Source: Candidatus Kaiserbacteria bacterium RIFCSPLOWO2_01_FULL_50_24
GTDB lineage: Bacteria > Patescibacteriota > Minisyncoccia > Phycocordibacterales > UBA2100
NCBI GenBank assembly: GCA_001783335.1
Contig: MFLU01000016.1
Span: forward strand, 688 to 64,687
Direction of reading: 5' to 3'
Length of the DNA stretch: 64,000 bases
The translations under genes and the position numbers were made by a program. Shown here one piece after another: positions 1 to 62,979 of this stretch (positions are counted from its first letter, which is position 1; each line of letters begins with the position of its first letter). The notes under the pieces are model-generated. The model was given only the letters and a program-made list of their open reading frames with translations, was not told where the DNA came from and made no database searches.

Positions 1-1858
1 GCGAGAGACCTTCTGCAACATCTCCGCGCGCAAACGCATTTATACCGAGCTTGAGTAAAATAGTTTGTTTCGTCGGCGAGATGCTCCTCGCACGTTCAAG
101 ATACGACTTCGCCTCGTTGTGCGCGCCATATGAATCAAGAAGCGCGCCTGCAAAAAATGCAGGACGCGCGGAAAACGGCATTGCTTCCATCTGCAATTCC
201 ATCTCGCGCACCGCCTCGGCAATAAACTGCTTTTTAAAATCGGACGGCACTTGTGAAATTCCAAAAATTTGTGACGCAATTTGCACAAACTGTTCGCGCA
301 CTTCCTGCGTACCGAATGAGCCAATATCCGACGCCTGCTTAAGGAGCTCGAGATTCGCATCAAGATTCTCCTGCTGCGAAATTGCTTTCAGCAATGCTCT
401 GTTCTGCGCGAGCCCCTTTGCGTTCACTCCCCACGCTACCGCCCACACCAGAAGCACGGCTATGACTGCGATTATTGCCGAGAGTGGCATGCGTGACACT
501 CTAGAGGCGCCGCCTCTAACGGGGCGCGCCCCAGCACTTCTGTGTGCTATGTATGCAAGAACCGTAACGAAAAGAATGTAGCTAGTGATGTTGTCAAAGA
601 CGAAAAGATTTTGAAAGAAATATCCCGCGAGAAGTCCGGTTAAGATACTCCGTTCAATAATAGGAAACACAGGCCCTCCGCTCTCCGTTCGCGCACGCCA
701 CAGTGAAAGAAGCGCGACCACGAAAAGCGCAAGATAAAGCGCGAGCCCCACGATGCCGCCCACTATGAGCCAGTCGAAAATCGTGTTGTGTACGCGATCA
801 AACCATTGCTCCTGCGCATACATGTTTGGGTTGTAGTACTTGTCAAACACCGCCGCATAATTTTCCTGCCCCCAGCCGAAAATCGGGCGCTCTTTAAATC
901 CCTCCCATGCCATGCTCCAGTTCATGAAGCGCGCTTTTGTGGTGCTGTCTTCCAGAGAGATCGTTGCCAGGCGGTCTAGGAATCCAATACTGCGAAGCCA
1001 TGACGCGTCGCGTGCGAGGAAAAATACGCCGCCTAAAACGACGATCGCCATCACCACACCCGTGGCCGCACGCCATGCGTTGCGCGAATTGCGTGCAAGA
1101 AGAACAAGTAGAACCGAGGCAAGGAGCGCGCCACCAACTAGCCCGAGAATGGCGCCACGCGTTCCGGTGAAAAGAAGGACGAACGTATCCAGTGCGATAA
1201 CAGAGCCATACATGAGCGAGAGCGCGAGGCGTCCCTTATTCACTTCCATCCACGATTGCCCCCATAGAAGCGCTGCGATGAAAATATGGAAAAGCATGTA
1301 GCCCGCGAGGTACGTGGCATTTCCGAGCGTCGCGTCAAGACGCGCCGCAAGCCCACCGCCGCCGCCCCACCCAAGCGCAACGTATCCGAACAATTGGAGC
1401 AATCCGTAGAGCGCGACGAACGCGGAGACGCCGAGTGACATCTGGAACAATCGCCGCCACAAGGCCGGCGTCATCACCGATACCACAACAGTGAAATACG
1501 CAAAAAGGTGCGCGAGCGTTACCCACCCCTCCATTCGCTCGAAGTTTGACCAGAAACTTTTAAACGGATATACGCCGAACGCGTCGGAAAGCGCGATGGC
1601 CGCTACAAACGCGGCGAACACCGCCAAGAGCGCGGAGACGCGAGGTCGATACGACGCATTCATGCACGCGAGCGCGATCCACGCGCCCACCGTTATCTCA
1701 ACGACGACCCTAAACGTAAAGTTCTTGCCGGTTATGTAGGGGAAGAAAAGCGAGGTGGAAACGATTAATACTATGAACGGAAGAATAAAAATGCCCGCCA
1801 CGACGATGAAGCGAAGCGTCTTTTCCAGCATTGTGCTTTGTGAATACACGCTCGCCAT
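1..1858 (-). CDS. O-antigen ligase (Wzy_C/WaaL-like) family polytopic membrane protein with C-terminal soluble region; partial, 3' end beyond window start
   Basis: Manual translation of the minus strand from ATG at 1858 gives an uninterrupted ORF to position 1 (MASVYSQSTMLEKTLRFIVVAGIFILPF...). It has many hydrophobic helices, then a soluble C-terminal region. It is absent from the ORF track because it is truncated by the window edge. Plus-strand track ORFs over this span are antisense artefacts. Confidence 0.6.
   Translation of the reverse strand, partial: MASVYSQSTMLEKTLRFIVVAGIFILPFIVLIVSTSLFFPYITGKNFTFRVVVEITVGAWIALACMNASYRPRVSALLAVFAAFVAAIALSDAFGVYPFKSFWSNFERMEGWVTLAHLFAYFTVVVSVMTPALWRRLFQMSLGVSAFVALYGLLQLFGYVALGWGGGGGLAARLDATLGNATYLAGYMLFHIFIAALLWGQSWMEVNKGRLALSLMYGSVIALDTFVLLFTGTRGAILGLVGGALLASVLLVLLARNSRNAWRAATGVVMAIVVLGGVFFLARDASWLRSIGFLDRLATISLEDSTTKARFMNWSMAWEGFKERPIFGWGQENYAAVFDKYYNPNMYAQEQWFDRVHNTIFDWLIVGGIVGLALYLALFVVALLSLWRARTESGGPVFPIIERSILTGLLAGYFFQNLFVFDNITSYILFVTVLAYIAHRSAGARPVRGGASRVSRMPLSAIIAVIAVLLVWAVAWGVNAKGLAQNRALLKAISQQENLDANLELLKQASDIGSFGTQEVREQFVQIASQIFGISQVPSDFKKQFIAEAVREMELQMEAMPFSARPAFFAGALLDSYGAHNEAKSYLERARSISPTKQTILLKLGINAFARGDVAEGLS
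500..532. repeat. GC-rich palindromic element in-frame inside the ligase-like ORF (TAGAGGCGc/CGCCTCTA plus GGGGCGCGCCCC)
   Basis: Encodes ...GARPVRGGASRVS... Shares the core gcctctaacgggg with the element in asnB-2. Confidence 0.5.
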
Positions 1859-1938
1859 TCTATCATGCCGGCCACTCTCGGCGCCACGTCCTTGTCCCGC
1901 AACGCCACATGATCCGGTCACACAACGCCCAGCCAACG

Positions 1939-61591: not shown

Positions 61592-62979
61592 AATGCTTTG
61601 ACGAGCGCGAGAAATTGGTCGTTGCGATCGAATTCATTCTTAAAGTATTTGCCGAACGACGAGAACGCAGGACTATAGAGTATTATCTCGCCCGATTCGG
61701 CGATGGCAACGGATTTGTCAACGCACGCCCGCAACCCTTCCTCTTCATAGACCAGAACATTCAGTTCAAGCGCTAAGACGTCATCGCGAATACGTTCCGT
61801 TCCACGTTCTTTGAACAATACGACCTTCGAGCACCATTTCGGTATTTCCTTCACAAGCTCTGACATGTCGAGGTTCTTATCGTCGCCGCCAACAATGAGC
61901 ACGACATTCCTTTGCCTTGCGTCGCCGACGGCACGAAGTGCTGCGATCGTTGCTTCCGGCGTTGTTGCGTTGTTGTCGTTGTAAATTTTTACGCCTTTCA
62001 CTTTGCGCACGAATTGTAAGCGGCCTTCCACGCCTGCGAATGATTCAAGACCTGCGCGTATTTCTTCTTCAGTCAAAGCCGAGCCCTGCCTGCCCCTGCC
62101 CGTCCGACAGGCGGGGGCAGGCAGGGCGCGAAGTGCTGCCGCCGCGAGCGACGCATTCTCGCGGTTGTGCTCGCCGAGGATTTTTAATTTCCAGTCGGCG
62201 GGAATTGGTGGCGGCACAAACGGCTCACACGGCGTATGAGCCGTTTGCACACGCTCAAACGCTTGTGCGCCGACTATAAGAGCATCGTCGGGTCTTTGAA
62301 ATTTAAAAATATTCGCTTTGTCGGCAAAGTATACGTCAGTCGTCGGATAGTAATTTACGTGGTCCTGCAAAAAATTCGTGAACACAGAAATGTGCGGACT
62401 TATTTTCAAATCACCGAATCCCTGCAGCTGCCATGAATCCAACTCAAGAACCGCAATGTCTCCCTTTCGTACTTCCGAAAGCAACGCGAGTGTTGATTTC
62501 CCTCTCACATTTCCACCGAGCGTTGTTCTCTTATTCGCGCGAATAAGAGAATGATGGATAAGGTGTGCAATTGTTGACTTGCCGCGCGTACCGGTAACAC
62601 CGACAATCGTCACACCCTCTTCCGTCGCGGACTTCGCAAAAAGTGCCGTGGACATGTAGACCGGCACGCCAGATGTGCGCGCGGCGGCAACTTCGAGCGA
62701 GTCAAGCGGCACACCAGCCGCTTTTACGACAAAATCACACCCCGTAAAATCCTCAGCGCGATGTTCACCGAGATGAAACGAGATGTTTTTGTATTTTTTT
62801 AATTTTTCCACCGACTCCGCTAGTTCCGCGTCGTTTTTCTTATCGGTCACAAGCACCTCTGCGCCGCATATACCTAGAAACTCGGCGTCCCCAACGGCCC
62901 GCCCCAAAAGCCCCAAACCGAGCAGGGTTATTTTCTTGTTGCGAAACATTTCGCAGGCCTTGTCTATATCCATGAGCAA
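61588..62979 (-). CDS. murD: UDP-N-acetylmuramoylalanine--D-glutamate ligase
   Basis: VGVTGTRGKST, Mur ligase middle and C-terminal domains. Carries a palindromic in-frame insert. Confidence 0.85.
   Translation of the reverse strand: MLMDIDKACEMFRNKKITLLGLGLLGRAVGDAEFLGICGAEVLVTDKKNDAELAESVEKLKKYKNISFHLGEHRAEDFTGCDFVVKAAGVPLDSLEVAAARTSGVPVYMSTALFAKSATEEGVTIVGVTGTRGKSTIAHLIHHSLIRANKRTTLGGNVRGKSTLALLSEVRKGDIAVLELDSWQLQGFGDLKISPHISVFTNFLQDHVNYYPTTDVYFADKANIFKFQRPDDALIVGAQAFERVQTAHTPCEPFVPPPIPADWKLKILGEHNRENASLAAAALRALPAPACRTGRGRQGSALTEEEIRAGLESFAGVEGRLQFVRKVKGVKIYNDNNATTPEATIAALRAVGDARQRNVVLIVGGDDKNLDMSELVKEIPKWCSKVVLFKERGTERIRDDVLALELNVLVYEEEGLRACVDKSVAIAESGEIILYSPAFSSFGKYFKNEFDRNDQFLALVKAL
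62083..62127. repeat. 45-bp GC-rich palindrome (GCCCTGCCTGCCCC ... GGGGCAGGCAGGGC) in-frame inside murD
   Basis: Encodes LPAPACRTGRGRQGSAL, apparently an insertion of about 14 aa in the MurD C-terminal-domain linker. Confidence 0.5.

Follow-up and report, generated by a model that had tools for sequence, protein, structure and literature searches.

A 29-bp palindrome that lies in frame in an asparagine synthase gene of Candidatus Kaiserbacteria bacterium RIFCSPLOWO2_01_FULL_50_24 belongs to a family with copies across several phyla, in hundreds of genomes of uncultivated bacteria. The DNA analysed is a 64,000-nucleotide stretch of contig MFLU01000016.1 (positions 688 to 64,687 of the forward strand), hereafter the window, and the family, which holds two of the three palindromes described below (sites 1 and 2), is here named P (CCCCGTTAGAGGC-NNN-GCCTCTAACGGGG). 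P inserts at YNNR sites with duplication of 4 bp of the target, and we consider it probable that it is a minimal non-autonomous element, made up of terminal inverted repeats with a target duplication and mobilised in trans, and that sites 1 and 2 are copies of it.

Three palindromes in the window

An initial annotation, made from the letters of the window, had described three GC-rich palindromes as in-frame inserts in protein-coding genes. We verified the coordinates of all three, and each was indeed found in frame with its host gene. The features of sites 1 and 2 are as follows:

2..1831, minus strand: host gene of site 1, encoding an O-antigen-ligase-like membrane protein, its C-terminal part lying past the left window end
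502..524: decayed or truncated P copy in frame in the O-antigen-ligase-like gene, of which the coding (minus) strand shows the left arm, the centre and 7 right-arm nt
25325..27118, plus strand: host gene of site 2, asnB-2, encoding a glutamine-hydrolysing asparagine synthase family protein
26371..26399: intact P element with 13-nt arms CCCCGTTAGAGGC and GCCTCTAACGGGG and centre AGT, in frame in asnB-2
26400..26403, plus strand: TGAA, the surviving right-hand target-site copy beside the asnB-2 P; the left-hand copy is gone

Site 2 (26371-26399), within the open reading frame (ORF) 25247..27118 of the plus strand, is a perfect 14+1+14 palindrome (CCCCGTTAGAGGCAGTGCCTCTAACGGGG) that encodes the peptide GPVRGSASNG and folds as single-stranded DNA with -16.2 kcal/mol (z = -7.2 versus shuffles). 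At site 1 (500-532), positions 502-524 correspond to 23 nt of the 29-nt site 2 element, adjoined by a 12-nt palindrome, GGGGCGCGCCCC, at 521-532; the encoded peptide is GARPVRGGAS, in a minus-strand ORF that extends past the left window end, and the fold is now no better than that of shuffles (z = -1.1). A common core had been noticed in these two elements; the 13-mer CCCCGTTAGAGGC is exact in both and matches at 512-524 (minus strand), 26371-26383 (plus) and 26387-26399 (minus). The window as a whole contains eight perfect hairpins with arms of at least 12 nt, compared with none in 40 first-order Markov simulations. The three sites are, however, not of one kind as had been supposed: sites 1 and 2 belong together in family P, but site 3, in murD, has other arms and belongs to an unrelated family, Q, described further below. 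Their description as in-frame inserts is borne out for asnB-2 and murD; at site 1 the segment is a hypervariable linker between membrane helices and the linker of the window has the modal length among 150 homologues, so that a net insertion is not demonstrable there.

The insertion in asnB-2

Proteins identical to the asnB-2 product occur in RIFCSP metagenome-assembled genomes (MAGs) of Candidatus Kaiserbacteria. Where asnB-2 reads FAR-GPVRGSASNG-VKV, its paralogue in the window reads FAR-EH-VKV, a contrast that had been drawn correctly from the start, and AR-EK-VKV is found in all 54 orthologues displayed (55-77% identity), none with an insert at that position. The P-encoded peptide was sought in 119 retrieved asnB-2 orthologues and found in none (0/119), and the insert falls opposite an 8-residue gap in the solved homologue PDB 7ylz. 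As neither the solved homologues nor any of the orthologues examined have it, the element in asnB-2 is an insertion. At the DNA level the nearest empty orthologue (L177) reads GCG CGA GAA AAA G-TGAA-AGTC, against GCGCGAG-G-[P]-TGAAAGTC in the window. Thus the right junction is intact and the left junction has lost 9 nt net, giving a net gain of 24 nt, that is, 33 minus 9.

The initial annotation had also raised the question of where the inserted peptides fall in the folded proteins and whether strains differ in carrying them. In an AlphaFold model of asnB-2 (mean predicted local distance difference test score, pLDDT, 93) a coil linking helix 337-348 to strand 361-363 holds the insert, and the 10-residue block in which it sits has a pLDDT of 74; by this model and the solved homologues, the inserts are at coil or loop positions. 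Within 90%-identity protein clusters there was no presence/absence polymorphism, and every member carried the insert.

Copy number, hosts and target duplication of family P

Uniqueness of the palindromes, with no other copies in the genome, had been put forward as one finding that would speak against a repeat family. We scanned species-representative genomes with the pattern CCCCGTTAGAGGCNNNGCCTCTA, which has 20 specified bases and for which about one chance match is expected in 596 Gb, and the matches listed included more than 117 stretches; a metagenome scan for AT-richer arms (CCCCGTTAGAA-RY-NNN-RY-TTCTAACGGGG) gave more than 120 further stretches among the matches listed. Copies elsewhere are therefore plentiful. 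The host labels include Kaiser-, Yanofsky-, Giovannoni-, Jorgensen- and Staskawiczbacteria and other Patescibacteria and, beyond these, Betaproteobacteria, Nitrospirae, Planctomycetota, Deltaproteobacteria and Thermodesulfobacteriota. The GC content of P-bearing contigs ranges from 0.34 to 0.69, and some MAGs, for example CAZFRR01, contain over 20 copies.

In more than 220 copies the length of P is constant (13+3+13). The centre, of 3 nt, is free to vary, the 10-nt tip CCCCGTTAGA is invariant, and the three inner arm positions vary and covary. AT-richer arm variants with covarying inner positions are as common as GC-rich ones, so it is the 10-nt tip that constitutes the invariant part, and GC-richness, which had been treated as a defining trait, is not one. 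The flanks follow the pattern YNNR-P-YNNR: among 101 full copies the expected base class was found 93 times for Y(-4), 96 for R(-1), 98 for Y(+1) and 95 for R(+4), and an exact 4-nt direct repeat adjoined P on both sides in 51 of the 101, where 1 in 64 is expected under the YNNR constraint. The AT-richer variants behaved in the same way, with an exact 4-bp duplication in 70 of 122 copies and YNNR on both sides in 115.

A search of Rfam with six P-bearing loci returned only chance-level microRNA matches, and plasmid and phage collections of cultured organisms gave chance-level partial matches only, with no P; matches at multiple places in a Leptospira plasmid proved to be half-site matches inside a gene and not palindromes. 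P occurs once among the viral contigs of IMG/VR, and there is therefore no sign of a phage vector. In literature searches by arm sequence, which returned only unrelated primer matches, and by keyword (palindromic elements and MITEs, which are miniature transposable elements with inverted repeats, in Patescibacteria), we did not find P or Q described. Elsewhere in the window, positions 39035-39054 in ORF 38115..39116 read CCCCGTTAAAATAGACGGGG, which may be an internally deleted P copy or may be due to chance.

P inside genes

Since 29 bp of P and 4 bp of duplication add up to 33 nt, or 11 codons, an insertion always preserves the frame. The frame CCC-CGT-TAG is closed, and the frames that encode PVRGxASNG and PLEAxPLTG are open; because P is palindromic, its open frames are identical on both strands, and four of six frames are free of stops. 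About two thirds of genic P insertions thus produce an 11-residue loop (PVRGxASNG or PLEAxPLTG) and not a truncation. We found P in frame in DnaE (L013, L058, L096, L105), UvrB (L079, L101), a UvrD-like helicase (L114), TsaD (L038) and a UvrA-like ATPase (L092), and the ORFs are continuous despite the inserts in the asnB-2, murD, UvrB, DnaE, TsaD and UvrA-like genes. At low-GC loci with at least 60 open codons on both sides, the PVRG frame was used 16 times and the PLEA frame 9 times. Two candidates for genes broken by P in the TAG frame (L099, L020) both turned out to be intergenic placements. Gene density in these genomes is high, about 90% by our own estimate, and about half of the low-GC P copies nevertheless lie outside long ORFs, which points to purifying selection against most genic insertions. 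In these gene-dense Patescibacteria, P copies persist in loops of essential proteins.

P is present in 3 of 120 UvrB homologues and in 1 of 120 asnB homologues. The UvrB insert measures exactly 11 residues (PD-PVRGIASNGAG-FLTV) and directly precedes the DESH strand; solved UvrB structures lack it, and for uvrB, too, empty orthologous sites were compared with filled ones at the DNA level. A further pair of empty and filled sites comes from homologous repeat arrays in L005 and L093, two loci that share a composite with two arrays and carry P in a different array each: the empty array reads GCG-TTTA-TCTGCG and the filled one GCG-TTTA-[P]-TTTA-aCTGCG.

In proteobacterial-type MAGs, P sits in tandem 7-mer or 10-mer arrays. 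In high-GC MAGs the array units around P include CTCATCA, TTCATCGGCG and TTTATCTGCG (L005, L012, L029, L045, L093, L092, L032, L053 and others); the duplicated 4-mer opens the array unit, and the units, uniform at any one site, differ from site to site. Such arrays may be preferred targets of P or by-products of repeated insertion and excision. MAGs labelled 'uncultured Streptomycetaceae' (CAZFRR01, with L007, L012, L014 and others; CAYYZZ01; CAZCGD01) share composite repeats with the Betaproteobacteria MAG JACPEF01 (L005 versus L093), and the label looks wrong for them.

Longer relatives of P

The spacer between the GT4 gene of the window and ORF 52085..53605 (minus strand) is occupied by an element with the following parts:

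51955..52083, minus strand: MITE-like element of 129 bp with terminal inverted repeats CCCTGTTAGAAGT (52083-52071) and ACTTCTAACGGGG (51967-51955)
52084..52087, minus strand: upstream copy of the TGAA target-site duplication, which includes the TGA stop of ORF 52085..53605
51951..51954, minus strand: downstream copy of the TGAA target-site duplication

On the minus strand this reads tgaa-CCCTGTTAGAAGT ... ACTTCTAACGGGG-tgaa, and a hairpin resembling a terminator, GCAGAAAAATT..AATTTTTCTGC, lies in the interior. The GT4 ORF has its ATG (52003) within the element and an in-frame GTG start at the element's edge (51955-51953). A word at the 5' end of GT4 had earlier been called a weaker relative of the palindromes; related it is, but as the terminal inverted repeat of this complete element with its TGAA duplication. 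The asnB-2 and GT4 sites share a 15-mer, TCTAACGGGGTGAAA, exact at 26390-26404 and 51950-51964, for which 0.15 matches are expected even with two mismatches permitted, and which is made up of an element end and the favoured TGAA target.

Relatives of this kind, of 65-215 bp, occur in many loci. They have termini YCCCGTTAGARRY and duplications of 4 to 5 bp, their terminal repeats measure 13 to 16 bp with the same 10-nt core as P, their interiors are unrelated between genomes, and P is nested within several of them. In L291 (1437-3766), L204 and L230 we observed at least three relatives of 80-160 bp about 1 kb apart, all with a TTCA duplication, which may lie in successive intergenic spacers.

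Conservation of the stem

The UvrB genes of L079 and L101 have 71% nucleotide identity, and 42% at third codon positions, and their P copies are identical at 29 of 29 positions, within 36 identical nucleotides that take in P and its immediate flanks. A third member of this UvrB clade, L118, carries CCCCCTTAGAGGCGTCGCCTCTAAGGGGG, in which the compensatory change G5C/C25G leaves the palindrome perfect. The UvrB copies came from a protein search, without selection for intact arms. More widely, the variable arm positions 12-13 are complementary in 101 of 122 copies (AT:AT 67, AC:GT 22, GC:GC 11). From these sequences we judge that arm complementarity is maintained, which could be due to selection for the hairpin, to concerted evolution among copies or to hairpin-templated correction; the last corresponds to template switching at quasi-palindromes, a process established in E. 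coli. In overall amino-acid identity the UvrB of L079 stands nearer to an empty orthologue (88%) than to that of L101, which is filled (79%), and the history of UvrB therefore includes loss or old short-patch transfer.

These observations bear on the possibility that P is, or has come to be, a functional element of its hosts, a DNA or RNA hairpin that is bound by a conserved protein, for example in chromosome organisation or RNA processing, and kept by selection, and whose frame compatibility would allow such sites in genomes that have hardly any DNA between genes. Such a role would be in keeping with the complete identity of P in UvrB genes that agree at only 42% of third positions, with the paired change that preserves the stem in L118, with an invariant 10-nt core and covarying positions 11-13 in hundreds of copies, and with the same P sequence in several phyla. 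The target duplications, empty sites, nesting and patchiness (3/120 UvrB, 1/120 asnB), however, are the marks of an invader, decayed copies occur (site 1 and solo ends), no partner protein was identified, and the arms could stay paired through hairpin-templated correction even in the absence of selection. We therefore regard a host function as unlikely.

How P might move

We favour the view that P is a minimal mobile element. Its two 13-bp terminal inverted repeats stand back to back with a free centre of 3 nt between them, and the 129-bp element at 51955-52083 is a longer relative with the same termini. It would be moved in trans by a DDE transposase making 4-bp staggered cuts, and the C-rich termini and the 4- to 5-bp duplication suggest an enzyme of the IS1380/piggyBac type. 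Ordinary end synapsis would require a duplex longer than 29 bp, and the substrate is therefore perhaps an extruded hairpin or cruciform, and the complementarity of the arms would be actively kept, either by selection or by arm-to-arm templating.

A source of the enzyme was sought in about 1.5 Mb of DNA flanking P copies. The 10-nt core is found there almost only as inverted pairs at most 260 bp apart, with seven solo ends. No real inverted core pairs 600-5000 bp apart were found, with or without a duplication, the apparent ones being two separate small elements in each case; no core pair encloses an ORF, and no transposase gene adjoins any P copy. Two other identities for P were considered and set aside: an integron attC site, given that the GTT/AAC cores are oriented opposite to those of attC and that P is too short, and an insertion sequence (IS) circle junction with abutted ends, given that the CCCC tips and the duplication are on the outside in the longer relatives.

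Several points weigh against the view that P is a small transposable element moved in trans. Covariation of the arms is unexpected for double-stranded inverted repeats that are recognised independently, and a P that is undiverged at orthologous sites amid diverged flanks fits functional constraint better than neutral junk. Known DDE transposases could not synapse the ends of a 29-bp duplex, so this step of the mechanism is speculative. Neither a transposase nor an element longer than about 215 bp with P termini was found in the flanking DNA, a search that did not extend to whole genomes. Finally, the asnB-2 copy of the window has no intact target duplication, and near-identical strains are not polymorphic, so that recent movement of P in this genome is not demonstrated.

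Alternatively, P might move as a single-stranded hairpin or extruded cruciform by means of a structure-specific enzyme, either a HUH/RAYT-like tyrosine transposase or a host junction or hairpin nuclease. It is the whole stem that is conserved and covaries, and not just two independent ends, P is too short for double-stranded synapsis, no autonomous partner is found between matching termini, and the use of a widespread host enzyme would easily explain the occurrence in several phyla. But IS200/IS605 and REP/RAYT systems have no target duplication and use a fixed tetranucleotide, where P has a variable 4-bp duplication; the 65-215-bp relatives with unrelated interiors behave as ordinary MITEs; and P has no GTAG or CGTC tag of the kind found in REPs (PMC3733652). 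We regard movement of this kind, too, as unlikely.

The idea of a mobile P can be taken further, to a reading that we offer as tentative and would expect to be wrong more often than right: P would be the smallest unit of mobile DNA in bacteria, specialised for genes, moving by way of a hairpin or cruciform with arm-templated correction, by means of an enzyme that does not come from an element with the same ends and is possibly a widespread host enzyme. Arm-templated movement, if true, would explain the covariation of the arms and the resistance to decay at sites that are millions of years old, and a widespread host enzyme, if true, would explain identical P in Patescibacteria, Proteobacteria, Nitrospirae and Planctomycetota.

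A second family in murD

Site 3 comprises the following features:

61588..62979, minus strand: host gene murD
62083..62127: family Q palindrome, long form (CCTGCCTGCCCC, 17 nt, GGGGCAGGCAGG; core 62085-62125), in frame in murD

The palindrome has perfect 14-nt outer arms within a repeat that spans 62080-62130 in all, with 25-nt arms at 88%, and folds with -26.3 kcal/mol (z = -6.4). It encodes PAPACRTGRGRQGSA. A single residue (AL-G-LSEEE) is found in 116 of 119 murD orthologues where the window has 15, so the insert adds 14 residues (42 nt); the DNA of empty sites was compared as well, and the spacing to conserved motifs is longer in the MurD of the window than in solved MurD structures. By the protein and DNA comparisons the murD element, too, is an in-frame insertion, as proposed earlier.

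The Q arms, CCTGCCTGCC(CC)/(GG)GGCAGGCAGG, are unrelated to those of P. The MurD of L119 (P0103), 59% identical, carries a short Q form, CCTGCCTGCCGGCAGGCAcG, at the same site, and closer orthologues are empty; the net gains in the two murD genes, 21 and 42 nt, equal the length of the Q element plus 1. In 55 IMG/VR stretches and five other loci we found Q either as a 20-nt perfect form or as a long form with 12-nt arms around 15-17 variable nt, the sizes ranging from 20 to 41 bp, often in terminator-like contexts or tandem arrays and with no consistent duplication. Q is a second family of recurrent palindromes, inserted in murD independently of P. One copy (L167, 515-534) comes directly after a 5' tRNA fragment (GGTAGCTCAGTTGGTA); an insertion inside a tRNA was considered for this locus and rejected, only the 5' fragment being present and ARAGORN predicting no intact tRNA with or without Q.

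Palindromes within ORFs could in principle be formed in place by template-switch (quasi-palindrome) mutation, an origin that concerns mainly site 3 and the other in-ORF palindromes of the window. The window has perfect in-ORF palindromes without change of length, at 62525-62551 and 62216-62247, and at site 3 there is overlap between the outer arm and the conserved codons GCC CTG of the host, as such an origin would have it. For P it is excluded, since hundreds of unrelated contexts, with target duplications, contain the identical 26 nt, and for Q it is opposed by the recurrence of the same arms in 55 viral stretches and five other loci and by the presence of Q forms in two murD genes that are 59% identical, with closer orthologues lacking Q. 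Formation in place is thus improbable.

Several other short sequences in murD merit description. The palindrome at 62525-62551 encodes SLIRANKR, an antisense-symmetric peptide common to the closest orthologues, and involves no length insertion. That at 62216-62247, also without length insertion, encodes QTAHTPCEPFV, which is patchy among MurD orthologues (P0019, P0021, P0025, P0028, P0036), where it replaces ..RPPVAP... In a second murD loop, short inserts recur, namely SAFAKASADR.. and ..LGLNRAEGTVGRTIRQR (P0008, P0016, P0029, P0031, P0036, P0037; P0021, P0025, P0013). The DNA that encodes SAFAKASADR (L179) is only weakly palindromic, and not every short insert is therefore a palindrome; proteins of Patescibacteria seem to gather inserts of several kinds. 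ORFs of the window contain two more perfect or near-perfect palindromes, at 43601-43631 and 51396-51422.

Excision footprints and artefacts

It is also conceivable that P copies are not themselves mobile but are footprints of excision, in which the termini of a longer element with the same ends have partly stayed behind. Some eukaryotic transposases leave such remnants (the P-element, with 17-nt staggered cuts), the variable 3-nt centre could be junction filler, and longer elements with the same core termini exist. The constant 13+3+13 length in more than 220 copies is nevertheless difficult to reconcile with footprints, as are arm variants unlike those of co-resident longer elements, the nesting of P inside longer elements and the fact that the 29-bp form is far commoner than the long ones; most Patescibacteria, moreover, are not known to have end-joining repair. 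We consider this explanation highly improbable.

That the palindromes are sequencing or assembly artefacts (adapters or chimeric junctions) is scarcely credible: they are short and perfect, come from metagenome assemblies only, and P is missing from the plasmid and phage collections of cultured organisms, but three genomes that stem from different projects have inherited one UvrB insertion, with its flanks diverged and a single compensatory change, frame use is non-random, the 4-bp duplication is regular, the copies derive from different assemblers and studies, and P is not known to match any adapter.

Comparison with known systems

The initial annotation likened the palindromes to Rickettsia palindromic elements. 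Like P, these are palindromes that reside in frame in coding genes of reduced genomes and encode a tolerated peptide; they measure about 100-150 bp, fall into ten families and are confined to Rickettsia (PMC10969869). The likeness extends to in-frame residence as a selfish palindrome, the hosts of P and Q keeping their ORFs open with inserts in loops, but not to size, P (29 bp) being about five times shorter and Q measuring 20-41 bp, nor to the restriction to one genus, P being present in several phyla. P has, in addition, terminal inverted repeats and a 4-bp duplication, keeps the frame through its own length (33 nt with the duplication) and is unrelated in sequence, a separation that rests on the descriptions of the Rickettsia elements and not on comparison with their consensus sequences. 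P acts like these elements and is not a member of their family.

Bacterial MITEs such as Correia/NEMIS, RUP and ERIC are, like P, non-coding and multi-copy, with terminal inverted repeats, a target duplication and no transposase of their own. P has perfect 13-bp arms, a fixed 4-bp duplication and many copies, and at 29 bp is too short to encode a protein; a related autonomous insertion sequence was not found in the roughly 1.5 Mb searched, a weak negative given that these do not amount to whole genomes. Known MITEs are roughly 50-400 bp or more in length and mostly intergenic, whereas P is reduced to two termini and 3 nt, its arms covary and its parent insertion sequence is not known. IS1380 elements have 'CC' ends and repeats of 4 to 5 bp. 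They are the prokaryotic relatives of the piggyBac superfamily, which has CCC termini and 4-bp duplications of TTAA and also TAAA, TCAA and others (PMC10813416). P resembles this group in its CCCC...GGGG termini, its duplication of 4-5 bp and its T..A-type targets, TAAA and TCAA included, but its target is YNNR and not TTAA, and no such transposase was found linked to P termini.

The smallest mobile DNA accepted so far in bacteria is that of REPs and REPINs, palindromic and highly repeated hairpins of 20-40 nt (PMC3116915, PMC3733652). These lie outside genes, differ from species to species, bear a GTAG or CGTC tag (PMC3733652), lack a target duplication and are tied to a RAYT gene. P, in contrast, is often intragenic, crosses phyla, has a variable YNNR 4-bp duplication and bears no tag, and so stands outside this group. 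Cyanobacterial small dispersed repeats (SDRs; Elhai et al. 2008) are reportedly hairpin repeats of 21-27 nt, proposed to be mobile, nested and accompanied by tandem heptamer arrays. They are reported in Nostocaceae only (PMC5861425). P is unrelated to SDRs in sequence but like them in being a very small hairpin repeat associated with arrays, given that it sits in 7-mer and 10-mer arrays, and among very small mobile repeats linked to heptamer arrays SDRs are the closest precedent.

Other palindromes in the window

A palindromic word, CAAACGTTTTGCAAAACGTTTG or close variants of it, occurs in four copies (44786-44821, 45082-45111, 45176-45197 and 48017-48046) in or near intergenic DNA and looks like a repeated operator or binding site, for which it is a candidate. 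Another palindrome, ACATACCAACATTCT..AGTATGTTGGTATGT, is present in three copies (1938-1970, 2276-2300 and 3860-3894). Long perfect intergenic hairpins stand at gene ends at 50691-50738 and 63004-63044, with arms of 23 and 20 nt; they are terminator-like and belong to neither P nor Q.

Implications

The finding is broader than the initial annotation supposed, and P, of which our literature searches by arm sequence and keyword turned up no description, is an extreme variant of an already known type of element. If confirmed, P would lower the size limit of transposable DNA to two transposase-binding ends alone, and it would illustrate a rule for selfish elements in genomes with little non-coding DNA, namely to insert multiples of three and keep frames open. 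It would also explain some of the many short inserts, specific to lineages and so far puzzling, in proteins of Patescibacteria, including essential ones such as UvrB, DnaE, MurD and TsaD; such inserts hamper homology modelling and alignments. The 26 nt that are identical across phyla are a ready marker of horizontal exchange in groundwater communities, and a natural insert of 11 residues that is tolerant of position marks permissive loops in many enzymes. Conservation of the stem means either that a protein reads the hairpin or that palindromes correct themselves, and both bear on genome stability.

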